48,569 nucleotides of DNA from an uncultured Bacteroidales bacterium (GCA_964293155.1 CAXYYA010000028.1:1-48569), one strand, 5' to 3'. Positions 25,692 to 40,782 are shown, counted from the stretch's first letter. Numbers and translations are program-made. Notes: a model not told the origin generated them from the letters alone.

Positions 25692-26948
25692 TTATCTTGG
25701 AGATTGTTTTCCGCCTTCTCTTCTCATTCCGCCACCTTCTTTTTCAACCGGAGTGTTGGACAACTGGTTTTTACGATTCCGTTGTTCATCTTTCACGTTC
25801 TCTTTTATTCCGTCTTTGTGAACATCTTTGCCGAATTCTATTTCAGTGTTTTGATCCCTGAGCAATTGTCTTTGTTCGTTTGTAAGGGATTTAATGAACG
25901 CTTTCTGTCTTTCAGTTCTGCTCAACGTTTTGTCTTCCAGAATGTCGAGTTGCTTTTGGGTCAGTGAGTTTCTGAATCGGTTTTTAGCCGGTTCCGCATT
26001 ATTGTCTGCTGTTTCCCCCTGGCGATTTTGAAGATTCGTGCGTTCCTGATTTTCGGTTTGCAGTTTTGTCTCCGCTTCGTCTAGTAAGTTTTTAATTTCG
26101 TTTAAATGATTTTCCTTTAGCTCATTCGACAAATTCGGTTCTACTTTTAACGGGGTTGGCTCCTGCAACTGAATTTTCTCCTGACTCATCGTTCTCTGCC
26201 TTTCCGGTTCGGGTTTCATTTCGTCTTTTGGAATGACGGCAGGTTTTTCTTCCGTGATATTCATATCTTTTTCTTCTACGGCTACAGTTACTTCCGGAGT
26301 TACCTCAGTAGGATTGTTGTGATGCTGAGAAATAATTTCGAACTGTTTATCCGCCTTCAGCCTTGCTTTCTGACCGGTCGTTATCACAACTTCGTTTTTT
26401 TCGGCAAACTCCACAAGCATCACTTTTCCATGTTCGCAATTCACCTGGTATTCATTTTCGCGAGCCGTTACCAAAAATCGTGTTCCTAAAACCACCGTTT
26501 TGGCCTTTTCAGAAACAACTTCGAACCTACTTCCGCTTTCCACTTCAAAATAAGCTTCGCCGTTTAGCTTTGTTGTCCGGCTGAACTTCCACAGCAAAGG
26601 TTTGTAGCTCAGCGACGAATTGGCGTGCAACACCACCTTGGAATTGTCCGGCAAAAGAAAACTCTTTTCAGCTATCACGGTTTTCACATTCTTTGTATAT
26701 AATGTTGCTGTAACAGCAAATGAAACCAATAAAGCGATCGAGGCTACTGCCGCGTATTTCAACAGTTGGAAATACCGGACGGGCTGAACTTTCTTCCCGG
26801 TTGGGTTAGCATCCAGTTTTGCTTCCATTTCCATCCAAATATCCTCTTTGGACCTGATCCATTGAGGTCGGGTGTTGGAAATGATATCTTCTACTTCCTT
26901 CGAAAATACGATATTTTCTTTTTCGGAATATGTATGTTTAATAATCAT
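25692..26948 (-). CDS. FecR-family anti-sigma factor with an extra C-terminal LTXXQ (Spy/CpxP-like) periplasmic domain
   Basis: 418 aa. The cytoplasmic N-domain is followed by one TM helix (AAVASIALLVSFAVTA) and a FecR domain (VVLHANSSLSYKP...GEAYFEVE...TRFLV). The C-terminus NSLTQKQLDILEDKTLSRTERQKAFIKSLTNEQRQLLRDQ matches the neighbouring secreted protein. Confidence 0.8.
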   Translation of the reverse strand: MIIKHTYSEKENIVFSKEVEDIISNTRPQWIRSKEDIWMEMEAKLDANPTGKKVQPVRYFQLLKYAAVASIALLVSFAVTATLYTKNVKTVIAEKSFLLPDNSKVVLHANSSLSYKPLLWKFSRTTKLNGEAYFEVESGSRFEVVSEKAKTVVLGTRFLVTARENEYQVNCEHGKVMLVEFAEKNEVVITTGQKARLKADKQFEIISQHHNNPTEVTPEVTVAVEEKDMNITEEKPAVIPKDEMKPEPERQRTMSQEKIQLQEPTPLKVEPNLSNELKENHLNEIKNLLDEAETKLQTENQERTNLQNRQGETADNNAEPAKNRFRNSLTQKQLDILEDKTLSRTERQKAFIKSLTNEQRQLLRDQNTEIEFGKDVHKDGIKENVKDEQRNRKNQLSNTPVEKEGGGMRREGGKQSPR

Positions 26949-26957
26949 AGGGTTTGG

Positions 26958-27440
26958 TTATAATAATGATTTTTTCAAAAATTGTAATGCTGCACTCATT
27001 CGTTTTTCTACAGCTTTCACACTTAAGCCCAGACGTTCGGCAATTTCCCAGTATTTCAAGCCCTCAATCCTCGACATTAGAAATACGGCTCGTTGCTTTT
27101 CGTTCAAACTGTTAAGTGCGATTTTATACTTTTCAAGTAACTCTTTGTGACTCAATGTATCTTCTGTCGAAGGCTCGTTACCGTAATAACGGATCGAAGC
27201 TATATAGTTCATTTCCAATACATCACGTCTATATTTACTAACAAACATGTCACCGGCAATTTTATAGAGGAGACGTTTTGCTGTTGTTTTATCTACCTCG
27301 AATTGTTTCTCCCAAAGCCGCATAAAAACCTCCTGTGCTATGTCTGAAGCATCATCCGGCCCCGCACCTCTATAATACAGGTAACCCCGTACCGAATCGA
27401 AGTAGGTATCGAACAAATATTTAAAATCCTCTTTTGTCAA
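26958..27440 (-). CDS. ECF (sigma-70 family) RNA polymerase sigma factor
   Basis: 160 aa. Region 2 is DIAQEVFMRLWEK and region 4 is KYWEIAERLGLSVKAVEKRMSAAL. It ends 9 bp before the anti-sigma gene start. Confidence 0.85.
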   Translation of the reverse strand: MTKEDFKYLFDTYFDSVRGYLYYRGAGPDDASDIAQEVFMRLWEKQFEVDKTTAKRLLYKIAGDMFVSKYRRDVLEMNYIASIRYYGNEPSTEDTLSHKELLEKYKIALNSLNEKQRAVFLMSRIEGLKYWEIAERLGLSVKAVEKRMSAALQFLKKSLL

Positions 27441-27708: not shown

Positions 27709-28323
27709 TTATTTCACCAAATTCAAACCATCCTTTGCCGATTGATCCGTTGGCGAGATAATGAGAACCGTGTTGAAAAGCCGTTGCGCATCGTTCTTTT
27801 TCCCGAGGAAATATTTTGTCCAGGCGCTCATCAGCGTAGAGTAATAATCGAACGGATACATCTGTTGCACCAAATCGAAATATTTCTCGGCTTCCATAAA
27901 GTTTTTCCGATAATAATAAATGTTTCCCAGCGCGTAATTTACCCGCGAATTCACCTTGTCCAGCAAAAGAATTTTTTTGTAAACCGCTTCCAATTCATCG
28001 GTTTTTTTCTGCGCTTCCAGCGGATAGCACAGGCCGAGCAGCGCTTCAACCGCTTTAGGAGCTATGTCCACCGCTTTTTGGTAAAATTTCTTGCTGCTTT
28101 CGTAATCTTTGGAAAGATAATACAACCAACCCATTCTCAGAAATTTATGATAATCGAATCCATTCAGGCTGTTTAATTCGCTGATGGCTTTCTGGTAATC
28201 GCCTGACGACTCGTACTGATAACTGTTTGCAAAAACCTGCGAAGGATTCACCTGTGCCGATGCGGTAATTAAGCCCGCCGCCAGCAGAAAGGTGAGTACC
28301 GTTTTTTTAATTAAAAGTTCCAT
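27709..28323 (-). CDS. Secreted TPR-repeat protein
   Basis: 204 aa with a signal peptide. The TPR-like repeats are rich in Y, K, A and L. Its start overlaps the upstream gene stop by 13 nt. Confidence 0.65.
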   Translation of the reverse strand: MELLIKKTVLTFLLAAGLITASAQVNPSQVFANSYQYESSGDYQKAISELNSLNGFDYHKFLRMGWLYYLSKDYESSKKFYQKAVDIAPKAVEALLGLCYPLEAQKKTDELEAVYKKILLLDKVNSRVNYALGNIYYYRKNFMEAEKYFDLVQQMYPFDYYSTLMSAWTKYFLGKKNDAQRLFNTVLIISPTDQSAKDGLNLVK

Positions 28324-29696
28324 TGTAACGCGAGATTTAAAAGATGATTATTATATTTGTATGTTGTGTAATTGGTTGACGAATAGGCGTATCCTTCCCT
28401 TTGTTGCCATTGATATCCGGCCGATAACATGGTTTTTTTGATAAAATAGGAGAGGGAAGCACCCGCAAGGGCTTTAACGGGATCGTACGTGTCGTAAACT
28501 AAAAATGAGTGCCCGGTAATGTAATTTTGATGATTCCCGATGCTGAACGCCCCATCCAGCCACAGCGATTTGGCTAATTTTACACCCAAATTTTGAGAAA
28601 AAACAACTTGTGTGCCTGTCCAGGCGTTTTGGTTGTAGATGGCTGCAAGAGCGGTTGTTCCGTAAAAATCGAGGTTTCCCAGCGGATAATAAGTGAGCGA
28701 TCCTTTTGCCTGATACTGATGTCCGCCGCCGAAATTGGAATAAGCCACGGCAATTTCGGGCAAGGTGTACGCAGAGCGTTTGTTAAGAAATGCCAGCATG
28801 GAGAAAGCCGAAATCGTGTTTCCGGTTGATGCGGTGTAATATATGGAAGGATAATAAAAACCGCCTCCGCCAGGGCCCCCGCCTCCTCCACCCGGGCCGT
28901 ATCCGCCGGCACGCGTTCCCATAGTGGCAGATGCAACAGCGGTCGTAGTGTACGGGATCGCTTTATCAATCTTTTCGATGTTGTAATACGCGCCGGCAAA
29001 TCCCCAGGTAACGTTATTATCCGAGAAAAAATCAAATCCGGCGATCAATTGATGTTGAGACAATCTCTCTTCTTTTACCAATCCCGTGCTGTTTGACCGC
29101 TGAAACTTGGTGTTATACAGTTGATATCCGAGTTTTAGCTTGGCCTTGTCGGAGAGTTTAAACCCAACGCCCAGCGTAGTGAATACCATATCCTGAAACT
29201 GGTTCAGCGAATCGTAGCCCATAAAATTTGAACGCAGATCGGGTTTGTTGTCGTTCGTAAGATAACCGCCTGAGAGCGCAATAAAATCCATCGCCGAAGG
29301 CGAATATCCGATAGCGGCCTGCGTGTGTGGCGCGAGCGATTTGGCAAGTATATCGGCATTGTTTTTCTGGCCGCTCAGCAGGTAGGCGTAATACAGGCTT
29401 TCCAACAGAGCCGGCTCGGTGGAAGTTTCTGCAAGCGTTTTTTTGTAAAATTCCGCCGCTTTGGCATAATTTTTCAGTTCATAATAAGCAATAGCGGTGC
29501 GGTAATTCAGATAATAAAAATCAATGTTTTGCGCCTGCGCCTGTTTGCTGGTCTCAATCAGATTTTTATAATCCTTTTGCAGGTATTGCTGATAGGTAAT
29601 GCTGTCAATGCGGGTTGCTTCCGGGCTTTGTTGCGCCTGTAGCGCAAACGTCCACATCATCATTACCGTTGCGAATGTTATACCCATTCGATACAT
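28311..29696 (-). CDS. Outer-membrane protein with an N-terminal TPR-like region and a C-terminal beta-barrel-like domain with a Gly-rich loop
   Basis: 461 aa with a signal peptide. TPR-like helices are followed by a GGYGPGGGGGGPGGGG tract. The strand pattern alternates aromatic/hydrophobic residues and the protein ends NLALQWNF (terminal Phe). Confidence 0.5.
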   Translation of the reverse strand: MYRMGITFATVMMMWTFALQAQQSPEATRIDSITYQQYLQKDYKNLIETSKQAQAQNIDFYYLNYRTAIAYYELKNYAKAAEFYKKTLAETSTEPALLESLYYAYLLSGQKNNADILAKSLAPHTQAAIGYSPSAMDFIALSGGYLTNDNKPDLRSNFMGYDSLNQFQDMVFTTLGVGFKLSDKAKLKLGYQLYNTKFQRSNSTGLVKEERLSQHQLIAGFDFFSDNNVTWGFAGAYYNIEKIDKAIPYTTTAVASATMGTRAGGYGPGGGGGGPGGGGFYYPSIYYTASTGNTISAFSMLAFLNKRSAYTLPEIAVAYSNFGGGHQYQAKGSLTYYPLGNLDFYGTTALAAIYNQNAWTGTQVVFSQNLGVKLAKSLWLDGAFSIGNHQNYITGHSFLVYDTYDPVKALAGASLSYFIKKTMLSAGYQWQQREGYAYSSTNYTTYKYNNHLLNLALQWNF

Positions 29697-31870
29697 AAGA
29701 CATGTTTTTTAGTGTTAATTTCCATTCTGTTTTTTATTACCGTGATAGTTGATTCTTTCACCGGCATTTTTATATTGAACGACTTAGCGTCTATAATGCT
29801 TTGATATACAATTTTTTCAGGATAAAAAATATGATCCGATTCCGTTAATTGCGAACGGTAATTTATGGTTGTGAAAATAACAAAAGGCGCCAAAAAATCC
29901 TGAAACCAACGCGTTCCGAAGGGGTGTTCCTTGGTAAGCGGTATTTTATCGGTAACGGAGATCTCTTTTTCGTTGGACAGCAATAATTTAAAGCAACTAC
30001 GGTAAAACAAATACAACGGCGATGATTTTCTTCCTTCAAAATCGGTAAAATAGAACATGGTGCCATCGTTTTCCACGTACGCCACGGCTTTCGATTTTTC
30101 GCAACGGATGTAGGTTTTGTTGTATTCGTCGGTAGCAATTGTCCAGGGATAATTTTCGTTGTCGTAGGTAACTTTCAGCAACCGGCCCGGTTTGCCTTCG
30201 AAAGCATCTTGCGCCAGCAACGAAGGAACTACGTTGAAGATCGTAGTATCCTGTTTCGGAACCTCGCCGATGTGCAAGAGCGGCTTACCGGCTGTTTTTT
30301 CAAAGAAATAACCCATGGGGTACGCATGTGTTGCCGACCCGATTTCGGGCGACAACTGCACCTGAAAATGAAGGTGCGGCTCCGGCGAACGTCCCGAATT
30401 GCCGCATGCGGCAAGTACGGTTCCTTTTGTTACATAATCGCCGGTTCGCACGTTAAAACTGTCTTTTTTAAGGTGGCTTAGCTGCGAGTATAACCCGTTC
30501 AAATGATTGATAATGATCGTATTTCCCCAATTCTTTTTCGTGTTTACATCATTTATTTCATTGTCTTCGGTAATGTTGCTGATCATGTACACATAACCGT
30601 CGGCCGGAGCCAACACCGGTTTGTTGTAACAGTAAAAATCTTCTTTCTGCGCACACCGGCCGAAACACGTTTTTCCTTCTTCGTCCGTGATCATAAAATC
30701 CAACGCTTTTCCCCATGCGCCCAGGTGGGTTATTGTACCGTTGTAGCCCTGCGTTACACGCCATTCTCCCAAAAAAGGCAATTGCATTTTAAACAGCATG
30801 TTTTGTGCGAAACGCTGCATGTAATTCACGTTTTTATATACCGTTTTCTCGGGATTATAATATTGAATATACGGAAAAATAAAGAACCGGCTAAAGCTGC
30901 GTTGTTTGAGAATGAACAGTACGAGAATGGATAAAAGACTGAATGATAATGTGTAAGAAGACAGCCCGGTATCCGATATCAAACTCTCCACGCTGGCATA
31001 AAACAGAAACAGGGCGGGCGTGAGGCCAATGACCAGTATGTAGCTGTAGATGTTGGGGATGATAAAGAAGCTTCCGATTGCCATTCCCCAGAAAATGTAG
31101 TTAACGCCAGCCAGATCCTGCGTGAGTTCTGCGATATCCACGCCAAGCAATTTACTGATGATAAATGCAAAGAAAAATCCAAAAAATGCTACCGTGGATT
31201 TGATGCGTGAGTGAAAAAGCAATGCAACGGCTATGATGATGCCGACTAACACGCTGTCGGTAAAGAAAATGGATGCCAATGTTTTAAAATAATAAAACAA
31301 CATGGGCGGCAAGTGCGCATTATCGAGTGAGTGGACGAAAGTGTACCACGGTACTTTCATTTGCCCGGCCAACACGATGGTGAAACGGTCGAACGGAATA
31401 ATGTACTCAATGTTCGTGAACGATTTTACCGAAAGATCAACGATGAACAACGTGAAAACAAACGGCAGAGTAAGCACGGGAATATCGTGCTTCGCAAAAA
31501 CCGATTCGAGCCATACCGTGAACATGAATACCAGAATAACCGATAAAACAAAAAGAATAATGAACGAGCCGTTCACGTAAAATTTGTAAACCAGACTCAA
31601 CCCGACAAAAACGGCGTTAAATCCGTACAATCCGCTCTTGATCCTTTTCTTCGAAAATCCGAGCCCGTGCGCGATGATGTTCGTCAGAACCACAGCCGAA
31701 AGTCCGCCCAATCCCAGCCGGATGTCCAGCATGCTAAGCACCAGCAAGATGATCGCTAACCACCTGCTTTGCGAGAAAAATATCATGGCATAGCTGTTCA
31801 GCGTGCCATCGAGATACATCAACGCGTATGATTTGAGACTTTGTTTCATTTGTTTATGATTTCGGGACAA
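29678..31870 (-). CDS. Polytopic membrane protein (urea-transporter-like duplicated domain) fused to a C-terminal M23/LytM zinc metallopeptidase domain
   Basis: 730 aa. The first ~330 aa hold about 10 TM segments with internally repeated GLYGFNAVFVG / LAGVNYIFWG and LTLPF motifs. The M23 motifs are HLGAWGKALD ... GNSGRSPEPHLHFQV. The stop overlaps the downstream gene start by 19 nt. Confidence 0.7.
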   Translation of the reverse strand: MSRNHKQMKQSLKSYALMYLDGTLNSYAMIFFSQSRWLAIILLVLSMLDIRLGLGGLSAVVLTNIIAHGLGFSKKRIKSGLYGFNAVFVGLSLVYKFYVNGSFIILFVLSVILVFMFTVWLESVFAKHDIPVLTLPFVFTLFIVDLSVKSFTNIEYIIPFDRFTIVLAGQMKVPWYTFVHSLDNAHLPPMLFYYFKTLASIFFTDSVLVGIIIAVALLFHSRIKSTVAFFGFFFAFIISKLLGVDIAELTQDLAGVNYIFWGMAIGSFFIIPNIYSYILVIGLTPALFLFYASVESLISDTGLSSYTLSFSLLSILVLFILKQRSFSRFFIFPYIQYYNPEKTVYKNVNYMQRFAQNMLFKMQLPFLGEWRVTQGYNGTITHLGAWGKALDFMITDEEGKTCFGRCAQKEDFYCYNKPVLAPADGYVYMISNITEDNEINDVNTKKNWGNTIIINHLNGLYSQLSHLKKDSFNVRTGDYVTKGTVLAACGNSGRSPEPHLHFQVQLSPEIGSATHAYPMGYFFEKTAGKPLLHIGEVPKQDTTIFNVVPSLLAQDAFEGKPGRLLKVTYDNENYPWTIATDEYNKTYIRCEKSKAVAYVENDGTMFYFTDFEGRKSSPLYLFYRSCFKLLLSNEKEISVTDKIPLTKEHPFGTRWFQDFLAPFVIFTTINYRSQLTESDHIFYPEKIVYQSIIDAKSFNIKMPVKESTITVIKNRMEINTKKHVLCIEWV

Positions 31871-31949: not shown

Positions 31950-33305
31950 TCAAAGTTTAAACCCTTTCAGATGTTCCGGTGTAACCTCCTGTTGTACAAT
32001 GGATTCCACGGTTTCGCTTTTGCGAATAAGATGCACTTTCCCCGTGGTATCAATCATGACCACATTGGGACGTAGCGTAATGAATTGCATCCATTGTGTC
32101 ATGTTGTAAGCGCCCACTTCGTGCACCACCACGCGGTCGTCCTTTTTTAACAGCGGTAAGCTAACGCTTTCGCGCAGGCAGTCAATGTTCATGCAAAGCG
32201 GCCCGTACAGCGCCATTTCTTCGGCATGCTGTGTGAAATCCTGCGCTGGCGATACTTTGTGATTGTACCAAAACGATGTGAACATGATATTTACCCCGAT
32301 ATCGAGCACGGTAGCCCGACGGCCGTTGGCCAGGCGTTTGGTTGCAAGCACGGAACCGAGCAGATAACCCGCTTCGTCAATCAATGCGCGTCCGGTTTCG
32401 AGGATCAGCAAGGGCAATTCATCGGGTTTAAAGCCGAATTGCAAAATGGTTCCGGTGATGGCTTCGGCATAATCGTCGAACGTAGGAATAACATCAGCAC
32501 CTTGCAGATACGAACCTTTGAGTGTGTTGGACGAACAGAATCCGCCACCCATATCAATGTATTTTATCTTTACGCCGGTTTTGTTTGCCGTATTTTGCGC
32601 CAGTTCGCACAGTTTGCGCGCCGCAACGGCATAAGCGTTGGCGGTGAGCATGTAGGTGCCGATGTGGGTGTGTAATCCTTCCAACTGAAGGTTTGGCTGC
32701 GTAATGATCTTCATGATCGCATTCCACGCCTGCCCGCTTTCGTAGTTGAAGCCGAACCTGTCCCACTGCGGATAAACGCCGGTGTCCATATTTACGCGAA
32801 TGGCAACACGCGCTTTTTGTGAAGTTCCTTCCAAAATCTCGATAAGCGAATAGAGCTCGTCGAAATGATCAATGTGGATGAGCGAACGGTTTTCCACGGC
32901 TATTTTCAGGTCATCGGCCGATTTATCAGGGCCGTTGAAAATGATCAGATTGCCCGGAACGCCGTTGCGAAGGGCTTTTTGGTATTCAAAACCCGATACG
33001 ACTTCCGCCCAGCTTCCTTCCTGATGGAAAACGTTGCAAACGGCATCCAGATAGTTGGTTTTGTAGCTCCAGGCGAATTGCACTTTCGGATAGCGCATTT
33101 TAAAGGCTTTTTGTGCTTTTTGATAGGTTTGGCGGATGGTTTTTTCGCTGATTACGAAGAGCGGCGAGCCGTATTCATCCATTAACCCGGCAACTGCCAC
33201 GCCATCAATTTGTTTCACAGGTATGTATTCGGTTCTGCTGCCGAATTTATTCATCAGGTTTGTGTTCAGTTTCTGAATCACAGGACGTTCGTAGGTTGGT
33301 TTCAT
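31950..33305 (-). CDS. Fold-type III PLP-dependent decarboxylase (Orn/DAP/Arg decarboxylase family)
   Basis: 451 aa. The PLP lysine motif is AWSYKTN, the glycine motif is DMGGGF, and beta/alpha-barrel plus C-terminal beta-domain features are present. Confidence 0.8.
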   Translation of the reverse strand: MKPTYERPVIQKLNTNLMNKFGSRTEYIPVKQIDGVAVAGLMDEYGSPLFVISEKTIRQTYQKAQKAFKMRYPKVQFAWSYKTNYLDAVCNVFHQEGSWAEVVSGFEYQKALRNGVPGNLIIFNGPDKSADDLKIAVENRSLIHIDHFDELYSLIEILEGTSQKARVAIRVNMDTGVYPQWDRFGFNYESGQAWNAIMKIITQPNLQLEGLHTHIGTYMLTANAYAVAARKLCELAQNTANKTGVKIKYIDMGGGFCSSNTLKGSYLQGADVIPTFDDYAEAITGTILQFGFKPDELPLLILETGRALIDEAGYLLGSVLATKRLANGRRATVLDIGVNIMFTSFWYNHKVSPAQDFTQHAEEMALYGPLCMNIDCLRESVSLPLLKKDDRVVVHEVGAYNMTQWMQFITLRPNVVMIDTTGKVHLIRKSETVESIVQQEVTPEHLKGFKL

Positions 33306-33391
33306 ATTGCCTTTGACCCCTGTAGTGGGATTTATTTAGTTATTATGAGCGTCCGACGGCTTGAAGTCCGTCTGACGCATATTTCAGACGG

Positions 33392-34447
33392 TTATCGAGC
33401 ATATTCCCCTGTTGTGGAAATCTGCTGAAATTCCGATATATCCACGATCATATCGTACGCGTAGCGGATAAATATTTTGCCGCTTTCGTACTCCGTGAAT
33501 GGTAGTACATCCTCGCTCAACGCCATTTTCACCAAAGCTTCGGCGTGATTTTGGCCGCAGCCGATAGCAAGGTACATCCAGGCGGGAAAACGGGGATTCA
33601 TTTCCAGCAGATAATATTCGTCTTTTTTTGTTTTGATAAACTCCAGTTCGCAACCGCCTTTCCATCGGCTGTTCTCAATTACGCGACGAGAAATCTCCAT
33701 GAGTTTATCGTCTTCCAACGAAACGCCCGACCATGCTTTTCCCTTGTCCGTGATGTACAATTTTCGCATCGGCACCGCGCCGATGCATCGGCCTTTTCCG
33801 TCGCCGATGGCGGTAACGTTTACTTCCGTTCCGGTTACAAACTCCTGGACGATAATGGGATATCCCCATTTGGCGACGATTTTGTAAAAATAAGAGCTGG
33901 CCTGCTCGTAGTTCGAAGCAATGTAGGCATCGTAGTATCGCCCTTTGATCACCATGGGATAATCGAGGTCATCTTCCAGTTTTTTAATTTCCGAAACCTG
34001 ATTAATGATATGGCTTTCCGGTACTTTTATATCGTATTTTTCGCCGAATTTATTCAGTTCCGATTTGTGGCGCTCTTCAAATTGCTCATGCGATGGCAGG
34101 AAAGTGGCTATCCCAAGCTCCGATTTTAATTCGTGTTGAATTTTGATGAAATTGTGCAATTCGGCATCAAAATTCGGGATGAGCACGTCAATTTTTTCCT
34201 GGCTCACGATGTATTGCAGCCGCTCTTTGAGCATGGCTGAGCCCGCGGTGGGCAAAGGCAGCTGATAGACTTTGTCCACCAATTCGTGCATATAAATTCC
34301 CGGTTCCAGCGTTTCGTACGATAAGCCGACAATGCGCACATCGAACGCCGAACTGTCTTTCAATGCACGAATAACGGGAATTCCCGGCCCGGGGCTGTCA
34401 ATGTTGTTGAGCCCAGTGACCGCTACGGTAATTTTTCGCTTATTCAT
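33392..34447 (-). CDS. ATP-grasp family carboxylate-amine ligase
   Basis: 351 aa. The ATP-grasp core (KGRYYDAYIA, IIVQEFVTGTEVNVTAIGDG, CELEFIKTKKDEYYLLEMNPRF) is present. The start overlaps the PqqD-like gene by 8 nt. Confidence 0.75.
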   Translation of the reverse strand: MNKRKITVAVTGLNNIDSPGPGIPVIRALKDSSAFDVRIVGLSYETLEPGIYMHELVDKVYQLPLPTAGSAMLKERLQYIVSQEKIDVLIPNFDAELHNFIKIQHELKSELGIATFLPSHEQFEERHKSELNKFGEKYDIKVPESHIINQVSEIKKLEDDLDYPMVIKGRYYDAYIASNYEQASSYFYKIVAKWGYPIIVQEFVTGTEVNVTAIGDGKGRCIGAVPMRKLYITDKGKAWSGVSLEDDKLMEISRRVIENSRWKGGCELEFIKTKKDEYYLLEMNPRFPAWMYLAIGCGQNHAEALVKMALSEDVLPFTEYESGKIFIRYAYDMIVDISEFQQISTTGEYAR

Positions 34448-34685
34448 TTTCGGATAGTTGGTAGCTTTTTAACATATCCAGAAAATCGTTGAGGTCTTTC
34501 TCGGCCGTGTGGGCATCGAGTTCGTATTCATCCTGAAGTGCTTTCAAAACGGTTTCGTTACTTTCACCGTTTTTTAATTGTTGAAGAACGAAAACGCCGG
34601 TTTGGTTTACACTGAAACTGTCGCCTGTAAGTGGATTAAAGATAAATCCGTTTTCGCTGATGGCTATGTTTTTTCTAATGTTCAT
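34440..34685 (-). CDS. PqqD-family protein (RiPP recognition element-like peptide chaperone)
   Basis: 81 aa. FNPLTGDSFSVNQTGVFVLQQLKNGESNETVLKALQDEYELDAHTAEKDLNDFLDMLKSYQL matches the PqqD/RRE winged-helix pattern. Confidence 0.7.
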   Translation of the reverse strand: MNIRKNIAISENGFIFNPLTGDSFSVNQTGVFVLQQLKNGESNETVLKALQDEYELDAHTAEKDLNDFLDMLKSYQLSENE

Positions 34686-34719: not shown

Positions 34720-35328
34720 TTACGGTTGTACGATATCGGAGAACTGTGACAAATTTAATACTTTTGGTTGATAATCAATGCCTCTGCGCGATAAATTTCG
34801 TACAAACGCCCGCAAATGGTTCTCCGAAGCGCGCAAGAGGTTGGAATAAATCCGTTGGATATCGGGATTGTCGGTTTTCTGCAAGTGCGATTGCAGGTCT
34901 TCGATATCCTGTTCTTCGATCAACGCTCCGGCTTGCAGCGCCTCGATGAGCGTTGTGCCTTTGGTGAGCTCGGTGTACATTTTCTGTAACTCACGATTGG
35001 TAAACACGCCTTCCGCTTTCGCGAGGTCTTTTAACCCATACGTATCCACAAGCCACATCATGGCGTTCTGGTGCACCGTTTCGCTACGCGAAATATTTCG
35101 GAAGATAGGGATGCTATACTGCCGGGCGTAAAACGTATAAACGTCGTGGGCAAGTTTTTCTTCTTCGCGCATGTACTCAATGCTTTGGATGTCGGCCTTC
35201 GTCAGATTTTGCGTTGAAGCCGGTATTCCCATCGTCTTATTCTGTGTGGTTTTAGCCCCATCGGCAGCTTGGGGCAACAAAAGTATTGCCCCTGCCGCGA
35301 TCAGAATGAATAAATATTTTGTTTTCAT
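34720..35328 (-). CDS. Exported DUF2202-like (ferritin-like superfamily) protein, paralog 1
   Basis: 202 aa with a signal peptide. YMREEEKLAHDVY...SETVHQNAM...LRASENHLRAF is a ferritin-like four-helix pattern of E/H ligands. Confidence 0.6.
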   Translation of the reverse strand: MKTKYLFILIAAGAILLLPQAADGAKTTQNKTMGIPASTQNLTKADIQSIEYMREEEKLAHDVYTFYARQYSIPIFRNISRSETVHQNAMMWLVDTYGLKDLAKAEGVFTNRELQKMYTELTKGTTLIEALQAGALIEEQDIEDLQSHLQKTDNPDIQRIYSNLLRASENHLRAFVRNLSRRGIDYQPKVLNLSQFSDIVQP

Positions 35329-35332
35329 TTTT

Positions 35333-36025
35333 TTATGTGTTTATGATAGCGTTGAAATCATCGTTGCTCAATAATTGAGGTTGATATGCAATACCGTTGA
35401 ATTTGAGATTTGCGACAAAGGCTTTCAAATGAAACTGTGAAGCACGGAGTAGATTACCGTAAATTCTTTTGATAAACGGGTTTTCTGTTTCGGCTATTTC
35501 TCTTTGAAGATCAATAATATCGTGTTCTTCGATAAAAGCGCCGGCTTTGTAAGCATCTACAACTGTAAGGGCTTCGGTTGTAAGCTTTGTGTATAAATTT
35601 TGCAATTCTTCGATGTTAAATACCCCCGGTACCGTTTCGGCGGGAGTCTCAATTTTGTAGAGATTAATAAGCCAGGCGATAGCTTTTCCGTGTGCTATCT
35701 CGCTTTTGGAGATGTTGCTGAACACGGGTCTGGCGAATTTTTCGTTAAAATACACATACACATTATTGGCTAATTTTTCTTCTTCGCGCATGTACAGGAT
35801 GCTGTTTATTTCACTTTCGGTGAGTGGCGCGAGTTGCGTATTTGTCAACAAACAAAGCGAATCGGTGGTTGCAGCCAGTGTTGCATCAAGTCGCGTAGTT
35901 GAAACTGCGTTTATCAATGCGGCTTGTTCGGCATTTTCTTCCGGTGAATTTACGCTGTTCGCTTCACAACCGAAAAGCAAAATTGCAAGAAATGCCACGA
36001 CGGAAATTTTTTGATAAGTTTTCAT
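35333..36025 (-). CDS. Exported DUF2202-like (ferritin-like) lipoprotein, paralog 2
   Basis: 230 aa with a lipoprotein signal (LLFGCE). YMREEEKLANNVY...SEIAHGKAI...LRASQFHLKAF parallels the neighbour. It lies 4 bp upstream of paralog 1. Confidence 0.6.
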   Translation of the reverse strand: MKTYQKISVVAFLAILLFGCEANSVNSPEENAEQAALINAVSTTRLDATLAATTDSLCLLTNTQLAPLTESEINSILYMREEEKLANNVYVYFNEKFARPVFSNISKSEIAHGKAIAWLINLYKIETPAETVPGVFNIEELQNLYTKLTTEALTVVDAYKAGAFIEEHDIIDLQREIAETENPFIKRIYGNLLRASQFHLKAFVANLKFNGIAYQPQLLSNDDFNAIINT

Positions 36026-36123: not shown

Positions 36124-36687
36124 TTATTTTGTGGTTTCCCTACGGTCGCAAATACCGTTTTTATTGGCGTCCACAAAATTTACCGCACTGCCTTTTCCAT
36201 TCCGAAGGCCGGTGCCTTTCCCTGTACCGCGTCCCTGGCGCGGTGTTCCGTTTTCGAAGTTGTCACAAATGCCGTCTTTGTCGGCATCTACGAAATTTGC
36301 TCCACCACCTCTGCCGTTACGCAGTCCGTTGCCATAGCCTTGTCCGCGTCCTCCACGGGGAGTTCCGTTTTCGAAATTGTCGCACACGCCATCTTTATCG
36401 GCATCCACAAAGAAGCGTCCTTGTCCTCTGCCGTTGCGTAATCCCTGGCCTTTGCCTTGTCCGCGGCCGCTACCGTCGAGCAGTCGTTGTTTGCCGTTGG
36501 CATTCGGATTTCCGGGTGTTCCGTTCTCGAAATTATCGCAAACGCCGTTGTTGTTTTTGTCCACAAATGCAGGTCCGGTTTGAGCGGTTTTCGCCGTTTC
36601 CTTTGCTGCCTGATTTTGATTTTGGGCGGTTGCTAATCCTATGGTGGCAACCAGCGCCATTGCAGTGATAAATACTTTTGTTTTCAT
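36124..36687 (-). CDS. Secreted protein with four canonical EF-hand calcium-binding loops separated by Gly/Arg-rich linkers
   Basis: 187 aa with a signal peptide. There are four repeats FVD(A/K)(D/N)K(D/N)G(V/I)CDNFENGTP, and each matches the EF-loop D-x-D-x-D-G-x-x-D-x-x-E and contains one Cys. The linkers are GRGQGKGQGLRNGRGQG. Confidence 0.6.
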   Translation of the reverse strand: MKTKVFITAMALVATIGLATAQNQNQAAKETAKTAQTGPAFVDKNNNGVCDNFENGTPGNPNANGKQRLLDGSGRGQGKGQGLRNGRGQGRFFVDADKDGVCDNFENGTPRGGRGQGYGNGLRNGRGGGANFVDADKDGICDNFENGTPRQGRGTGKGTGLRNGKGSAVNFVDANKNGICDRRETTK

Positions 36688-36717: not shown

Positions 36718-37293
36718 TTATCTGGTTTCGTTCCAATCGCGTCCGTAGCGATGCCGGTATCCGCGTCCCATACCGAGACTGTCGGTTCGGTTATATCCGT
36801 ATCCGTACCCGCGACGGGCATTCACCGTTTCATCGCGATACAACGGTAGGAATGCTCTTTCTAATTGAGCGCACTGCGCGTCGTTGCACGCCGATTTTAT
36901 CTTCAGGTAGAAATCGTTTGTAAGCTTTTTCAGTTCTGCGTGATGATTTCCGATGTGATCCGATAACGCATTTAATTTTGTTTCGTCGGGTTTCGGTTTG
37001 TTCAACTCCATGAACATTTCGTTTTTCAGCGAATCCATTTCGTAAATCAGCAGGTTGGCACGGGGTTGAAATTCCCGGTTCGCTGCGCGAAAAACATCCA
37101 TCTGATCATTGTCGAATCCCAGCCTTTGCCGAAAATACCTTCCGGTGAGCGGGGGCTGGCCTTCGTCAATAACAATTGCTGTGTTATCGTCTTTTTCCTG
37201 CTGATTGTGATAGACGATAGTTCCGATGGTTGTCAGGTTCAGCACCACAAGCAGTGCAATTACCCACATCATTATTTTATTCGTCTTATTCAT
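36718..37293 (-). CDS. Membrane-anchored periplasmic Spy/CpxP/ZraP-like protein (periplasmic heavy-metal sensor family)
   Basis: 191 aa. An N-terminal TM anchor is followed by a helical domain (QMDVFRAANREFQ...HHAELKKLTNDFYLKI) and a Tyr/Gly/Arg-rich tail. It overlaps the upstream gene by 8 nt. Confidence 0.5.
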   Translation of the reverse strand: MNKTNKIMMWVIALLVVLNLTTIGTIVYHNQQEKDDNTAIVIDEGQPPLTGRYFRQRLGFDNDQMDVFRAANREFQPRANLLIYEMDSLKNEMFMELNKPKPDETKLNALSDHIGNHHAELKKLTNDFYLKIKSACNDAQCAQLERAFLPLYRDETVNARRGYGYGYNRTDSLGMGRGYRHRYGRDWNETR

Positions 37294-37579
37294 AATCGTC
37301 GAAATTATAATAGCCTAAATTCTCGATCTGACTGTCGTTTATGTTCATCGTAAACTCGTGAGAAACGCTTTTCTGGTAACTGTTACCGATGCTTACGCCT
37401 AAAAATGCAACGGCAGCAAGGCTGGCAGCCACAACCACAGTTTGCCAAACGGGCGTTCTGCGACGCTCCGGTTGTTGCCTTTTTTCGATTTCGGCCATCA
37501 CCCGCGTACTCAGGAACGGATTATGTTCCGTTTGCTTTTCGCGTTTGATGAAATCGTCTATGTACTGTTCCGTTTTCAT
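37286..37579 (-). CDS. Small single-pass membrane protein, putative anti-sigma factor
   Basis: 97 aa. A cytoplasmic N-terminus is followed by one TM helix (VWQTVVVAASLAAVAFLGVSI). It lies immediately downstream of an ECF sigma gene (36-bp gap). Confidence 0.4.
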   Translation of the reverse strand: MKTEQYIDDFIKREKQTEHNPFLSTRVMAEIEKRQQPERRRTPVWQTVVVAASLAAVAFLGVSIGNSYQKSVSHEFTMNINDSQIENLGYYNFDDYE

Positions 37580-37615: not shown

Positions 37616-38161
37616 TTATTTCCTACGGTCATATTCTAATTTTTTTTGCAGAGTGCTTTTTGCACGTTGTAAAAGTTGTTCCACAGCGCCTTCCGATTTT
37701 TTCATGACGGCGGCAATTTCTTTCTGCGGTAATTCTTCGTATTTACTCAGGATGAAAGCTGTTCGTTGCGAATCGGGCAGGGAATTGATGGCGTTTTTTA
37801 TCCGCTTGTCCCGTTCCGATTGTTCCAATCGTTCCAACGGCGTCTTTTCCTCACTCTGTTTGTGAAAGATGTTTTCCAACGATTCCACCACGCGGTTCTT
37901 CTTTTTTCGATTCACAAAATTGATACTCGCGTTTACGGTAATCCGGTACAGCCATGTAACAAATTGGGCTTCGCCCTTGAAATCGGGCAACGATTGATAT
38001 ATTTTAATGAAAACTTCCTGCGTGATATCTTCCGCATCTGCTTTGGAGTGCACAAAACCCAACGTCGTTCGGAACACCATACCCTGGTATTTCTCCATAA
38101 GTTCTTTAAAGACAATGGTGTTACCTGAAATTATTTCTTGTATGAGTTGCTCGTCCGACAT
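37616..38161 (-). CDS. ECF (sigma-70 family) RNA polymerase sigma factor
   Basis: 181 aa. Region 2 is DITQEVFIKIYQ and region 4 is LPQKEIAAVMKKSEGAVEQLLQRA. Confidence 0.85.
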   Translation of the reverse strand: MSDEQLIQEIISGNTIVFKELMEKYQGMVFRTTLGFVHSKADAEDITQEVFIKIYQSLPDFKGEAQFVTWLYRITVNASINFVNRKKKNRVVESLENIFHKQSEEKTPLERLEQSERDKRIKNAINSLPDSQRTAFILSKYEELPQKEIAAVMKKSEGAVEQLLQRAKSTLQKKLEYDRRK

Positions 38162-38392
38162 GTGCAGCAGTTCTTTTTCGTTTGTTTAGACAACGAAGAC
38201 CGGTTTTTCCTACGGTTGGTGATAATTTAACATTGCAATTTCGTTAAAAAATTTGGAACTAAAAAAAGTTTTTTTATTTTTGCAAAAGATAATGTTCTAT
38301 CGAACAACCGATATCATGATGTGTTAGTTTCTCTTTCGACTGCCGTCTCAGGCAGGTATTTTTTTAGCGCTACTGATTTAAACCAACCAGCT

Positions 38393-39664
38393 ATGAAAAC
38401 GAATTTTTTTATTTTTGGCATAATATCCCTTATGCTTGTATCCTGTTATCAGGAATATCCTGCACATTTTAGGCAGTATATTGATGTGAATGCTTCCATT
38501 GATGGGCTGAAAACCCGCGCCACAAATGCCTCATGGGAAGCGAATGATGCCATCGGAATTTATATGAAAATCAGTGGAGAGGGTTTGTCTGTACCAGCTT
38601 TGGCTGAAAATTCGAAATATATTACCGACGGAACGTCCGCTTTTCAGTCTGCTACGGCCGATGGAGCTATCAGCTTTCCGCTCGACGGCACTGATGTGGA
38701 TTTCATCGCGTATTATCCACATCAAACAACAATCACGGACTTAACGTATCCGGTAAATGTTTCCGATCAAAGCAGCCTGCCGGCTATTGACTTGTTGTAT
38801 TCAAACAATGCCGCGGGGCTAAATTCTCAAAATCCGGATGTTGGGCTGACTTTCGTTCACCAATTATCGAAGATAAACGTGCTAATTATGCCCGAAGATG
38901 CAACGTCTGATTTAAGCGGTTTAACCGTAACGATGACCGGTGTGGGAACCTCCGCAACATTTTCATTAGCCGACGGAACGCTTTCGGCGCCCGCTATCAC
39001 GGGTAATGTCGCATTCAATATGAGTTCCGACGGACGCACTGCTCAGGCTATTCTATTGCCGATGGCCGATTTCACGGGTAAATCGCTTATTATCGCTTTT
39101 GGATCCAATTCTTACGAATTCCCGTTGACTCAAGGGGTAAATATCACTTCTTTCGAAAAAGCAACGCAATACACGTATAACGTTACGCTTTCATCGCAAG
39201 CACTGTCGGTTTCCAACGCAACCATCACCGATTGGGTTACCGGCCCGTCGGAAAATGTGATCATCGGAAGCGTCGGAACGGCGCCTGTAACCGGCGGAAC
39301 ACTCGATGATCCGTTTACTATTGAGGAGGCAATTGCCAATCAGGGGTTGATGGATAGATGGGTAAGAGGGTTTATTGTGGGTTACTATAAAACGACTTCC
39401 TATAAATCATTTACCACAAGTGTAGATGATGTGACGAGCACCACCAACATTGCTTTAGCAACAGTTAGCACAGAGACCGATTCAACCAAAACGTTTCCTG
39501 TACAATTGTCTGCTACCCAAATCAGAGATACACTCAATCTGCTGGATCATCCTGAAAATTTGGGCAGAGAAGTTCTGGTACGAGGAGATTTGGCAACTTA
39601 TCAATACATTGCCGGAATGAAGGCGGCTGATGGAGCAGTAATTAACGGAGATACCATTCCCTAA
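38393..39664 (+). CDS. Cell-surface lipoprotein, fimbrillin-like (FimA/Mfa-type N-domain)
   Basis: Lipoprotein signal MKTNFFIFGIISLMLVSC. The Thr/Ser-rich beta architecture resembles Bacteroidales fimbrillin-family proteins. The track ORF begins at a GTG at 38321, and the Met at 38393 is preferred. Confidence 0.45.
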   Translation: MKTNFFIFGIISLMLVSCYQEYPAHFRQYIDVNASIDGLKTRATNASWEANDAIGIYMKISGEGLSVPALAENSKYITDGTSAFQSATADGAISFPLDGTDVDFIAYYPHQTTITDLTYPVNVSDQSSLPAIDLLYSNNAAGLNSQNPDVGLTFVHQLSKINVLIMPEDATSDLSGLTVTMTGVGTSATFSLADGTLSAPAITGNVAFNMSSDGRTAQAILLPMADFTGKSLIIAFGSNSYEFPLTQGVNITSFEKATQYTYNVTLSSQALSVSNATITDWVTGPSENVIIGSVGTAPVTGGTLDDPFTIEEAIANQGLMDRWVRGFIVGYYKTTSYKSFTTSVDDVTSTTNIALATVSTETDSTKTFPVQLSATQIRDTLNLLDHPENLGREVLVRGDLATYQYIAGMKAADGAVINGDTIP

Positions 39665-40782
39665 TTTACGTGATACCCCTGGCTATGCATTTCCGATGCA
39701 CGAAAGAGGGTGTATTTTTCCTCGTTTAGCGGATAATCCCAGCAACCGAGGCTGTGATAGATTTCGCCGCCGAAACCCGATTTGAATTTATACAACCCGT
39801 ACATCGGGTGTTCGGGATCGGGCGTGGGCGATATGCCGAACATATCATACTGGGTGCAGCCTGCGGCTTTCGATAGCCGGATGGCTTCCCACTGCAACGC
39901 GTATGCAGCCATCAGGTTCCGGTTTTCCGACGAAGAGGCGCCATACAAATACGAACCCCTGTTTCCCGAAATTACCAGAAACATGGCTGCGAGCGGTTTT
40001 TGGTTATATTCCGCAATCAAAAGACGCACACGCGCCGGTGAACGTGTATTATCGGCTTTTGCCGAAAGCACGGCTTCAAAGTATTTTATATCGTTTAGCA
40101 GGATACCGTTTCGTGCCGCCGTCTCTTTGTAGAGTTCATACCACGTGGAAATTTCCTCCATCCCTGCCGATTTTACGGTTGCGCCGCGACGTTGTGCCAG
40201 ACGGATGTTGTAGCGGGTTTTCGGTTTCATGCGTTGCAGGATGCTTTCTTCGTCTTGTCTTAGGTTCAGATAAACGGTACTTGCCGGAAGTATGTTGGAA
40301 AGCGCTTTTTTGAAATTCCAGTTTTCCGTATTGAAATTGAACCGGAATTCTTGTGTGCGTAATTCCGGTTCGCCTTTCCATAAGCCGTTTTCATCAAAAT
40401 TATCGGCTTCTTTTGTCCAGTATGATTCCCAACAAAGATCATAGCGAATGAGGATGCAGTTATTCGGTAAATACGGGCGAATGCTTTCCGATAATTCTTC
40501 CAGAAAAAGGCTTTGAAATTCATCGGATGGTTCCAGTTCAGGGCCGTAAGGCACATACGCCACAGAATGATTCCTGTCGATTTGTTGCAGGACGATCAGC
40601 AGGTCTGAAACCAGCAATTTATCGCTCCTGGAATGAAAAATATCCGACTCCCTCGATTTAAACCCGACAGCAAGCGTTTCGGCGCCCAGCTTGTTCTTTA
40701 CTTCCGACCAAAATGCCGTCTGTTGCAGAATGGGCGTTTTGTTCAGTTCGTCCGTGTCTTTTTTCCGAATATCTAACAGCAT
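39661..40782 (-). CDS. FemAB-family aminoacyltransferase (GNAT fold)
   Basis: 373 aa. YLYGASSSENRNLMAAYALQWEAIRLSKAAGCTQYDMFGI matches the FemAB/lipid II peptidyltransferase family core. Confidence 0.75.
   Translation of the reverse strand: MLLDIRKKDTDELNKTPILQQTAFWSEVKNKLGAETLAVGFKSRESDIFHSRSDKLLVSDLLIVLQQIDRNHSVAYVPYGPELEPSDEFQSLFLEELSESIRPYLPNNCILIRYDLCWESYWTKEADNFDENGLWKGEPELRTQEFRFNFNTENWNFKKALSNILPASTVYLNLRQDEESILQRMKPKTRYNIRLAQRRGATVKSAGMEEISTWYELYKETAARNGILLNDIKYFEAVLSAKADNTRSPARVRLLIAEYNQKPLAAMFLVISGNRGSYLYGASSSENRNLMAAYALQWEAIRLSKAAGCTQYDMFGISPTPDPEHPMYGLYKFKSGFGGEIYHSLGCWDYPLNEEKYTLFRASEMHSQGYHVN

Follow-up and report, generated by a model that had tools for sequence, protein, structure and literature searches.

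A PqqD-like protein, an ATP-grasp ligase and an FslC-like decarboxylase encoded with a UT–M23 membrane protein: a candidate operon for amine-bearing amides in a Bacteroidales bacterium

In some described pathways an amino acid is joined to an acceptor first and is decarboxylated only while it is tethered. FslA and FslC (FigA and FigC) of the Francisella rhizoferrin pathway and BtrJ and BtrK of butirosin biosynthesis both follow this logic. The work described here concerns a locus in the DNA of an uncultured Bacteroidales bacterium (GCA_964293155.1, CAXYYA010000028.1:1-48569) that appears to use related enzymes. The whole stretch that was analysed, 48,569 nucleotides in length, is called the window. 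On one strand it encodes a small protein of the PqqD family, an ATP-grasp ligase and a pyridoxal phosphate (PLP) decarboxylase, followed by a membrane protein in which a channel of the urea-transporter (UT) fold is fused to an M23 peptidase domain and by two secreted proteins with TPR repeats. Each enzyme comes from a known family and the ligate-then-decarboxylate logic has been described before. The combination appears to be new: a PqqD of the type that acts as a recognition element (RRE) for peptides that are synthesised by the ribosome and modified after translation (RiPPs), with no precursor; a ligase resembling carbamoyl phosphate synthetase (CPS); an FslC-like decarboxylase with a pocket of its own; and a UT channel fused to a putative amidase, either M23 or sirtuin. 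We know of no described pathway that joins all four features, and no description of the operon was found in the full-text literature searched, the coverage of which omits most subscription journals. Tentatively, and with somewhat less than even confidence, we propose that the operon builds, trims and exports an amine-bearing amide compound by PqqD-assisted ligation and decarboxylation of the tethered residue.

In the rhizoferrin pathway a side-chain amide link is made first and the α-carboxylate is then removed by a PLP enzyme with the alanine racemase fold, as is proposed here. FslC and the decarboxylase of the window also have in common a Thr in place of an Arg of diaminopimelate decarboxylase (DAPDC) and a Cys-Met pair in the catalytic loop. 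However, the ligase of the Francisella pathway is a synthetase of the type used for siderophores made independently of non-ribosomal peptide synthetases (NRPS), whereas here it is an ATP-grasp enzyme with an RRE partner. The citrate-binding residues of FslC, H357, R387 and N389, are replaced by I, Q and M, and the cut-off of the FslC family is not reached. Export also differs, as rhizoferrin leaves through a pump of the major facilitator superfamily while the locus described here encodes a UT–peptidase fusion with TPR and outer-membrane proteins. The butirosin enzymes resemble the locus in that an ATP-grasp ligase works with a related decarboxylase on tethered glutamate and has a small partner of about 80-90 aa, and the later amide-cleaving "deprotection" step of that pathway can be likened to the amidase of the operon. 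However, BtrI is a phosphopantetheinylated acyl carrier protein (ACP), whereas the small protein here is predicted to have a PqqD/RRE fold, with no conserved carrier serine, there are no aminoglycoside genes and the operon is membrane-linked.

Other described systems resemble parts of the locus. In the RRE-dependent RiPP pathways, such as PqqD/PqqE and the B1, B2 and C proteins of lasso peptides, a PqqD domain is coupled or fused to a modifying enzyme and an ATP-dependent amide-forming enzyme occurs with a peptidase. Unlike those pathways, the present locus has no precursor gene that could be found, the partner of PqqD is a CPS-like ATP-grasp enzyme and no curated PqqD subfamily is reached. 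To our knowledge neither a PLP decarboxylase nor a UT channel occurs in any RiPP class. The LysW/LysX/LysK system also combines a small protein with an ATP-grasp enzyme and releases its product with a metallopeptidase, but the ATP-grasp enzyme of the window is not RimK/LysX-like and its small protein has neither a zinc ribbon nor a conserved C-terminal Glu. In the exopolymer exporters (PgaA, BcsC, AlgK/AlgE) a periplasmic TPR protein and an outer-membrane barrel come directly after the inner-membrane component, as they seem to here. However, no glycosyltransferase synthase is encoded in this operon, the barrel is putative and the inner-membrane partner is a UT channel.

The initial annotation described three genes between positions 31950 and 34685, and all of them were found at those positions on the minus strand with their domains confirmed by Pfam. 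The trio is real, but as a unit it is incomplete; it makes up half of a six-gene operon, with three further coupled genes downstream at 27709-31870. The evidence for each gene (open reading frame, ORF; Pfam; overlap) is given in brackets:

34440-34685, minus strand: PqqD-family small protein, 81 aa (ORF and Pfam PF05402)
33392-34447, minus strand: ATP-grasp carboxylate–amine ligase, 351 aa (ORF and Pfam)
31950-33305, minus strand: fold-type III PLP decarboxylase, 451 aa (ORF and Pfam)
29678-31870, minus strand: inner-membrane UT–M23–β-rich fusion, 730 aa (ORF and Pfam)
28311-29696, minus strand: secreted protein with TPR and a probable outer-membrane β-barrel, 461 aa (19-nt overlap with the UT–M23 gene)
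27709-28323, minus strand: secreted TPR protein, 204 aa (13-nt overlap with the 461-aa gene)

The stop codon of PqqD and the start codon of the ATP-grasp gene lie within a common 8 nt, ATGAATAA, and the ATP-grasp and decarboxylase genes are separated by a spacer of 86 bp (33306-33391). Both the overlap and the gap were read directly in the sequence, as they had first been reported. The listed ORF of the UT–M23 gene starts with TTG, and an in-frame ATG is present at 31849. In our reading, to which we give a little below an even chance, PqqD, the ATP-grasp ligase and the decarboxylase are the cytoplasmic enzyme core of an operon that spans the envelope; the operon itself is conserved across several phyla.

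One genome per species was scanned with two ATP-grasp peptide motifs, and at least 568 genome loci with a relative of the ligase were found. The operon comparisons were made with the best 80 of these loci, matched against the window proteins. Where the contig is long enough, the genes have the order PqqD, ATP-grasp, decarboxylase, UT–M23, TPR/outer-membrane protein and TPR protein, and thus the three genes first described are co-located in other genomes as well. The 80 loci are named as Bacteroidia, Chitinophagia, Sphingobacteriia, Flavobacteriia, Cytophagia-type lineages and Kapaibacterium. The window comes from a Petrimonas-like genome, and its closest database protein, 98% identical, carries the name of a Petrimonas metagenome-assembled genome. 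The genes are closely packed: the median distance is -8 nt between PqqD and ATP-grasp (n=78), +36 nt between ATP-grasp and the decarboxylase, +20 nt between the decarboxylase and UT–M23, -16 nt between UT–M23 and the outer-membrane protein and -13 nt between the outer-membrane protein and the TPR protein. The degree of conservation varies among the six proteins. When the window was compared with 66 more distant loci, the identity was 66% for the ATP-grasp ligase (63-72% across Bacteroidota classes) and 68% for the decarboxylase, followed by 47% for PqqD, 41% for the TPR protein, 37% for UT–M23 and 27% for the TPR/barrel protein. The two enzymes are far more identical than the envelope components and are therefore under much stronger constraint. 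No seventh gene is conserved across the 80 loci, only lineage-specific regulators.

Co-occurrence had been proposed as something to look for across Bacteroidota. The order is indeed conserved there, but the system is also present outside Bacteroidota. An exhaustive HMMER search of 1.8 billion cluster representatives returned only 219 clusters at E ≤ 1e-30, and these include two natural fusions, one of PqqD with ATP-grasp (P0341, 477 aa) and one of ATP-grasp with the decarboxylase (P0281, 871 aa), as well as tandem double ATP-grasp proteins of about 710 aa. The fusions show that the three proteins work together, and they bear out both the coupling of PqqD to the ligase, for which the conserved overlap also speaks, and that of the ligase to the decarboxylase. 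The tandem-ATP-grasp relatives are named as metagenome-assembled genomes of Rokubacteria/Methylomirabilota, Nitrospinota and Terriglobales (Acidobacteriota). In one variant operon (L081) the order is a TPR protein of 857 aa, a PqqD–ATP-grasp fusion, a degenerate ATP-grasp protein, the decarboxylase and a UT–SIR2–GNAT protein. Three others (L085, L094 and L095) encode a TPR protein of ~450 aa, PqqD, a tandem ATP-grasp protein, the decarboxylase and a UT–SIR2 protein, with a sigma-54 two-component system divergently transcribed beside the operon. A further variant (L082) has PqqD, an ATP-grasp–decarboxylase fusion and a protein of 637 aa; the genes upstream of these encode large TPR and HEAT proteins. 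UT–M23 forms, either rearranged or syntenic, are found in L087, L088 and L092, where the ATP-grasp identity is 39-45%. TPR proteins accompany the distant variants too. As judged by these comparisons of sequence, the invariant core consists of PqqD, the ATP-grasp ligase, the decarboxylase, a TPR protein and a UT channel that carries a hydrolase or transferase domain in the same polypeptide.

The assignment of the 81-aa protein to the PqqD family stood up to a profile test. It matches PF05402 with E = 1.1e-12 and 48.6 bits against a gathering score of 23.4, over 63/67 profile positions, and its homologues in the distant variants match PF05402 too. The profile match supports a winged-helix RRE fold. 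However, the protein falls below the cut-offs of all the curated NCBIfam subfamilies, namely PqqD of PQQ synthesis (TIGR03859), lasso B1 (NF033530/NF033536), HPr-rel-A (TIGR04353), ScmD and WgkC; the scores against the cut-offs are 45/70, 17.8/46, 25.4/35, 23.5/100, 24.8/110 and 22.1/80, and the best curated match is to lasso B1 with E = 1e-11. A role of PqqD as the accessory, substrate-presenting domain of the ATP-grasp ligase is supported by its coupling and fusion to that enzyme.

It was noted at the outset that no short precursor ORF is evident nearby. This held when the 80 loci were searched, up to 2.5 kb to each side of the operon, for ORFs of 15-100 aa and these were clustered by BLAST: no such ORF is conserved, and only shadow ORFs of flanking genes recur among close relatives. 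The median intergenic gaps, from -16 to +36 nt, also leave no room for a hidden gene. Any peptide substrate would have to be encoded elsewhere, have fewer than 15 residues or form part of a larger protein.

The suggestion that the small protein may itself be a carrier did not hold up. In Bacteroidota the C-terminal tail of PqqD is acidic and Lys-rich, and it coincides with an A-rich start region of the overlapping gene. Its length varies and its last residue may be E, D, A, G, K, N or others, while the tails of the distant variants are unrelated (for example ...KKMMLA in L087). The "GDS" motif is found elsewhere as GRVYS, GETYS or GTTFT, and in some distant variants the Ser is V or T. No match to PP-binding (ACP) was found in Pfam or NCBIfam and none to Zn_ribbon_LysW in Pfam. 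A covalent carrier of the LysW/BtrI type was set aside on the grounds that neither the tail nor the "GDS" serine is conserved and that the PqqD domain of P0341 lies N-terminal to the ligase.

The ligase matches PF15632 (ATPgrasp_Ter, 41.8 bits against 29.1) and PF02786 (CPSase_L_D2, 26 against 19.8) as well as ATP-grasp_3, and its Mg-ATP motif LLEMNPRF (E-x-N-x-R) is invariant in a 10-sequence alignment. All the NCBIfam models of the PRK12767 "CPS-like" type are below their cut-offs, with the best at 94.6 bits against 390. Sequence and profile searches of the PDB returned only CPS, 2pn1 and the ATP-grasp modules of biotin and urea carboxylases. From these matches the enzyme is placed in the CPS/biotin-carboxylase-like clade. 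No RimK, LysX, MdnC or graspetide family was found among its matches in NCBIfam, Pfam or the PDB, and the parallel with LysX drawn in the initial annotation was therefore dropped. In other phyla the ligase is tandem-duplicated or fused to the decarboxylase.

Two further observations were made on this enzyme family. The degenerate ATP-grasp protein of the high-GC variant L081 (4980-5852, 290 aa) matches the window ligase in its N- and C-terminal parts only; it may be a non-catalytic partner, the counterpart of the second module of the tandem ligases. Lone ATP-grasp paralogues, in L086 (9001-10056, 46% identity) and L090 (9001-10047, 40%), occur without PqqD, decarboxylase or UT genes. One adjoins a 1263-aa uncharacterised protein and GcpE and the other lies in a polysaccharide-type locus with MBOAT, M1 peptidase and glycosyltransferase genes. 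The ligase family thus serves other pathways too. The lone paralogues P0244 and P0254, whose surroundings are unrelated, were set aside.

The decarboxylase matches Orn_Arg_deC_N (E = 6e-33) and Orn_DAP_Arg_deC (E = 3e-12) in Pfam. Among solved structures it comes closest to the N-citrylornithine decarboxylase FslC/FigC (7kh2, 189 bits), followed in the PDB by an archaeal DAPDC (1twi, 151 bits) and BtrK (99 bits); a D-Orn/Lys decarboxylase is also matched. The LysA model TIGR01048 is the top NCBIfam match, and a related entry carries the name diaminopimelate decarboxylase (jgi). However, the score of 223.3 bits is below the LysA cut-off of 297.9, and the FslC/FigC model NF041039 is not reached either (217.6 bits against 500). 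In HMMER alignments the catalytic set is intact, with K82, H214, the GGG loop G253-255, E303/R306 and C371.

The residues that set specificity are more informative. DAPDC uses an Arg of its specificity helix to hold the distal carboxylate of diaminopimelate (DAP), and ornithine, arginine and diaminopimelate decarboxylases use an acidic residue that follows the catalytic Cys to hold the free amine of the side chain (PMC7857480). At the position of R343 in MjDAPDC the window enzyme has T343, as does FslC (T327), and its catalytic loop reads C371-M372, as in FslC, rather than Cys-acidic. The FslC residues H357, R387 and N389, which have been proposed to hold citrate (PMC7857480), correspond to I374, Q404 and M406. 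None of these specificity and catalytic positions varies among 73 Bacteroidota loci, and 6 distant variants, the UT–SIR2 operons among them, keep them too. The sequence comparison thus describes a neutral or hydrophobic pocket and predicts one and the same substrate across the family. DAPDC, FslC, SbnH, AcsE, MccE, BtrK and D-ODC form "clade 2" of the fold-type III PLP decarboxylases (PMC7857480), and by its signature the window enzyme groups with FslC, SbnH, AcsE, MccE and BtrK, which act on side-chain-attached amino acids. Since the DAPDC Arg and the acidic residue are both absent and these positions are invariant, a substrate with a tethered side chain is implied, and the enzyme is predicted to act on an amino acid that is already amide-linked through its side chain. 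The early analogy to the decarboxylation of a ligated residue is strengthened by this placement with FslC and BtrK and not with LysA. A housekeeping LysA was rejected on the score and on the replacement of both R343 and the post-Cys acidic residue in 73/73 loci.

The 730-aa membrane protein consists of a UT domain (~21-321), an M23 domain (~360-515) and a β-rich C-terminal domain (~520-730). The UT domain matches PF03253 with E = 1.4e-44 and 152.9 bits against 25, over profile positions 2-291/292, and its PDB matches are UT-A, UT-B and dvUT. It is below the cut-off of the Yut equivalog TIGR03441 (98.5 against 274.6). The pore signature LPxxTxPF is kept (the window protein reads IPVLTLPF, the consensus of the family LPFLTxPF), and this points to a narrow, amide-recognising channel that is functional. 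The M23 domain (Pfam E = 1.5e-16, 60.8 bits against 28.7) has zinc ligands and catalytic His residues (H375, D384, H449, H459, H492 and H494 in alignment numbering) that are invariant or nearly so in 73 sequences, and it is probably active.

M23 peptidases would be expected outside the cytoplasm if this domain followed the murein hydrolases of its family, but the predicted topology suggests otherwise. Hydropathy and an AlphaFold model (pLDDT 85) place helices to about residue 315, then one amphipathic helix and then all-β domains; neither shows a transmembrane segment after the UT domain. In the structures of UT-B and dvUT both termini are cytoplasmic. In the assemblies named as Methylomirabilota, Nitrospinota and Acidobacteriota, a sirtuin whose NAD and zinc motifs are intact takes the place of M23, and in one case a GNAT domain comes after it; sirtuins and GNATs need the cytoplasmic cofactors NAD and acetyl-CoA. 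Because no further transmembrane helix is present, and given the UT topology and the swap for sirtuin and GNAT, we infer that M23 and the β-rich domain are cytoplasmic and lie at the channel's inner opening. Whether M23 or sirtuin, the domain that follows the UT part is probably a cytoplasmic amidase. M23 peptidases prefer bonds between side-chain-free residues, of the Gly-Gly type, sirtuins remove N-acyl groups from the unbranched aminoalkyl chain of lysine and GNATs acetylate unbranched aminoalkyl amines. The interchange of the three therefore fits an amide of an unbranched aminoalkyl group, such as tethered decarboxylation would yield.

The last two genes code for proteins of the envelope. 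In the 461-aa protein the N-terminus resembles a signal peptide and residues 20-125 match TPR. The remaining 330 residues contain no hydrophobic helix. Gly (12%) and Tyr (9%) are frequent there, as are Ser, Thr and Asn; many alternating hydrophobic dyads occur, and the protein ends in ...LQWNF. There is one weak match to the barrel of TonB-dependent receptors, and a PDB profile search matched the TPR part only, with no barrel homologue. Composition and sequence pattern make an outer-membrane β-barrel probable. The protein was detected in 47 of the 80 loci and is replaced by a 318-aa alternative in 9 others. The 204-aa TPR protein, conserved as the last gene of the operon, has a signal peptide without a lipobox Cys and matches multiple TPR families of Pfam, with E down to 1.6e-15. 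The TPR regions also have weak NCBIfam matches to PgaA, BcsC and PrsT.

From these data a sequence of steps can be proposed. PqqD would present an extended, peptide-like acceptor, not encoded in the operon, to the CPS-like ATP-grasp ligase. Using ATP, the ligase would amide-link the acceptor to the side chain of an amino acid, leaving the α-amino-acid centre free; candidates are the γ- or β-carboxyl of Glu or Asp and, in Orn, Lys or a comparable residue, the distal amine. Next, the FslC/BtrK-type decarboxylase would strip the α-carboxylate of the tethered residue, and an unbranched aminoalkyl amide, of either the 4-aminobutanoyl or the N-acyl-diamine type, would result. Where the UT channel opens to the cytoplasm, M23 (in other phyla a sirtuin, once with a GNAT) would cleave or trim the product amide. 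The released molecule would leave through the channel, and the TPR protein of the periplasm and the TPR/β-barrel protein of the outer membrane would handle it. The domains, the conservation of the operon, the fusions, the decarboxylase signature, the M23 residues and the swap of M23 for sirtuin provide the direct basis for this scheme; from them we infer in what order the steps occur, that M23 lies in the cytoplasm, which way transport runs and every chemical identity.

Several points weigh against the scheme. An RRE without a co-encoded peptide is unusual, and PqqD may do something other than present a peptide; a 15-aa floor and BLAST clustering would also miss very short or fast-evolving peptides. 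The nearest solved relatives of the ATP-grasp ligase activate bicarbonate or carbamate, and its chemistry may instead be of the carboxylation type. The cytoplasmic M23 leans on the topology of other UT proteins and on the sirtuin swap, and the UT pore is narrow, so that passage of product, by-product or substrate and either direction of flow can be envisaged. The β-barrel of the 461-aa protein was assigned from composition, with the PDB match confined to the TPR part.

PqqD could instead be a structural or regulatory subunit of the ligase, in a small-molecule or polymer pathway that involves no ribosomal peptide and makes an N-acyl-diamine, a γ-aminobutyric acid (GABA) or β-alanyl amide, or an iterated polyamide. 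This is a serious alternative, although on balance we think it unlikely. The logic would be that of FslA/FslC and BtrJ/BtrK, the decarboxylase pocket is invariant and neutral or hydrophobic, the tandem or duplicated ATP-grasp modules elsewhere suggest two ligation steps, and the pairing of TPR proteins with an outer-membrane barrel recalls the PgaA and BcsC exporters, weak as those matches are. The preference of M23 for side-chain-free substrates fits as well. However, the conserved RRE fold, which is ligase-fused in one variant, is left unexplained, no carrier, primer or further biosynthetic gene is conserved and no such natural product is known from these bacteria. A related reading, to which we give only a slim chance, is that BtrJ/BtrK-like ligation and decarboxylation are iterated to give a polyamide free of side chains, an oligo- or poly-GABA or poly-β-alanine, a "natural nylon". 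Each round would attach Glu or Asp, by its side-chain carboxyl, to the amine that ends the growing chain and then decarboxylate the new residue. The chain would pass through the amide-selective slot of the UT channel, M23 or sirtuin would cut it to length or free it from a PqqD-bound primer, and export through the TPR/β-barrel proteins would resemble that of synthase-dependent exopolymers. Were this true, it would be a new class of secreted biopolymer, neither ribosomal nor made by NRPS, and a new use of the UT fold. Another alternative is a classical RiPP pathway with an unlinked precursor: PqqD would bind the leader, the ATP-grasp ligase would add an amino acid to the core or cyclise it, the decarboxylase would modify the added residue, and M23 would be a leader peptidase coupled to export, much as in peptidase-containing transporters. 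There is a genuine PqqD/RRE domain coupled or fused to a modifying enzyme and a peptidase fused to a membrane channel, sirtuins also recognise acyl-lysine embedded in peptides, and we know of no role for an RRE domain besides peptide binding. Nevertheless, this is a little less likely still. No small ORF is conserved in the 80 loci and most have no intergenic room for one, and the same is true of the five-gene variants of other phyla; it would be unusual for a precursor to stay unlinked in several phyla; RiPP tailoring enzymes are typically far less conserved than the enzymes found here; and the pore in known UT structures is too narrow for a peptide.

A further possibility is remodelling of the envelope or peptidoglycan, in which M23 would be a periplasmic murein endopeptidase and the ligase and decarboxylase would alter a peptidoglycan precursor, for instance by turning peptide-bound DAP into Lys. 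Most members of the M23 family are murein hydrolases, DAPDC is a relative of the decarboxylase, regulators of the envelope-stress type (ECF sigma and LytTR) are found upstream and TPR envelope proteins are present. This is improbable in view of the lack of a transmembrane segment between UT and M23, the replacement of M23 by an NAD- or acetyl-CoA-dependent sirtuin or GNAT, and the absence of the DAPDC residues for the distal carboxylate and amine of DAP; nor is any Mur- or Fem-type gene conserved alongside. It is slightly more improbable that PqqD is a covalent carrier like LysW or BtrI, on which an amino acid is ligated and decarboxylated and from which it is released by M23. A small protein with an ATP-grasp enzyme, a BtrK-like decarboxylase and a metallopeptidase does parallel LysW/LysX/LysK and BtrI/BtrJ/BtrK, and the PqqD tails are acidic in Bacteroidota. 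However, the tail varies in length and last residue and is non-acidic in some, the "GDS" serine is replaced, no ACP or LysW signature was found and in P0341 the N-terminal position of PqqD leaves no free C-terminus. That a housekeeping lysA merely lies beside unrelated genes has a negligible probability. LysA is the top NCBIfam match and some sources would name the enzyme diaminopimelate decarboxylase, but the score is below the cut-off, the active site is not that of LysA, the gene order is conserved across phyla and fusions occur; a chance neighbourhood was ruled out on these grounds.

Hundreds of environmental and anaerobic-digester Bacteroidota carry the operon in tightly conserved form, variants exist in at least three other phyla and a dedicated regulator is always present, which makes it likely that the product is important to the physiology of the envelope or of stress. 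Its elucidation could reveal a new metabolite, peptide-derived or an amide, an RRE that acts in a non-canonical way or a new transport function of the UT fold. It could also give the first cytoplasmic role for an M23 peptidase, as we know of no other. Cultured carriers exist, for example Petrimonas sulfuriphila DSM 16547 (L002).

Three genes upstream of the operon form a possible regulatory module:

37616-38161, minus strand: ECF sigma factor (Pfam)
37286-37579, minus strand: anti-sigma-like protein, 97 aa
36718-37293, minus strand: Metal_resist/Spy-like periplasmic protein, 191 aa (Pfam)

The ECF sigma factor and the 191-aa protein are upstream of the operon in 16-17/80 loci, Flavobacterium included, and from this position it is possible that the module regulates the operon. 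The regulators vary by lineage: an AraC-type protein is upstream in 16 loci, a LytTR response regulator in 14 and a histidine kinase in 10, and in the variants of other phyla the regulator is the sigma-54 two-component system. A second ECF sigma factor (26958-27440, minus strand) and a FecR-type anti-sigma protein (25692-26948, minus strand) follow the last operon gene after a 268-bp gap.

Other genes near the operon are restricted to close relatives. Tandem genes for DUF2202 proteins, ferritin/rubrerythrin-like and of the secreted or lipoprotein type, are present at 34720-35328 and 35333-36025 (minus strand), 34 bp from PqqD, and this lineage may transcribe them together with the operon. Only a few close loci (L001, L003, L008 and L009) have a relative of either protein upstream. 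At 36124-36687 (minus strand) a 187-aa secreted protein is encoded that has four repeats of ~18 aa, FVDxxKxGxCDNFENGTP, with one Cys each. It has acidic loops like those of EF-hand or thrombospondin proteins, Gly/Arg/Gln-rich spacers and a sub-threshold match to DUF6520, and it lies upstream of the operon in 12 close loci, while none of the distant loci has it there.

The spacer between the ATP-grasp and decarboxylase genes was also considered as an RNA element or terminator:

33306-33391, minus strand: 86-bp spacer with a stem-loop, perfect 8-bp stem CCGTCTGA/TCAGACGG (sequence reading)

As RNA it folds at -24.7 kcal/mol, with z = -2.5. The candidate was rejected because of this modest z value, the lack of an Rfam match and the lack of conservation of the spacer (median gap 36 nt elsewhere). 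The promoter and terminator scans were at chance level. An anti-phage defence system was also rejected, as the six window proteins have no PADLOC match and the UT–SIR2 variant has only marginal SIR2 matches.

A 94-aa protein with a weak Zn_ribbon_LysW match is encoded in L095 (17846-18130) among HMA, MerB and MerR genes. It is 3.7 kb from the UT–SIR2 operon, on the opposite strand and in this single locus, and is probably unrelated to the operon. Further away in the window, a FemAB-family protein is encoded at 39661-40782 (minus strand), ~5 kb from the operon. This family includes aminoacyl-tRNA-dependent enzymes that form peptidoglycan bridges, and the protein is not among the recurring neighbour families in other loci. 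An Mfa-like fimbrillin fused to DUF6359 is encoded at 38321-39664 (plus strand), divergent from the ECF sigma gene, and a 531-aa fusion of a dual-specificity phosphatase with a lipid kinase of the diacylglycerol-kinase/YegS type is encoded at 9985-11580 (minus strand).

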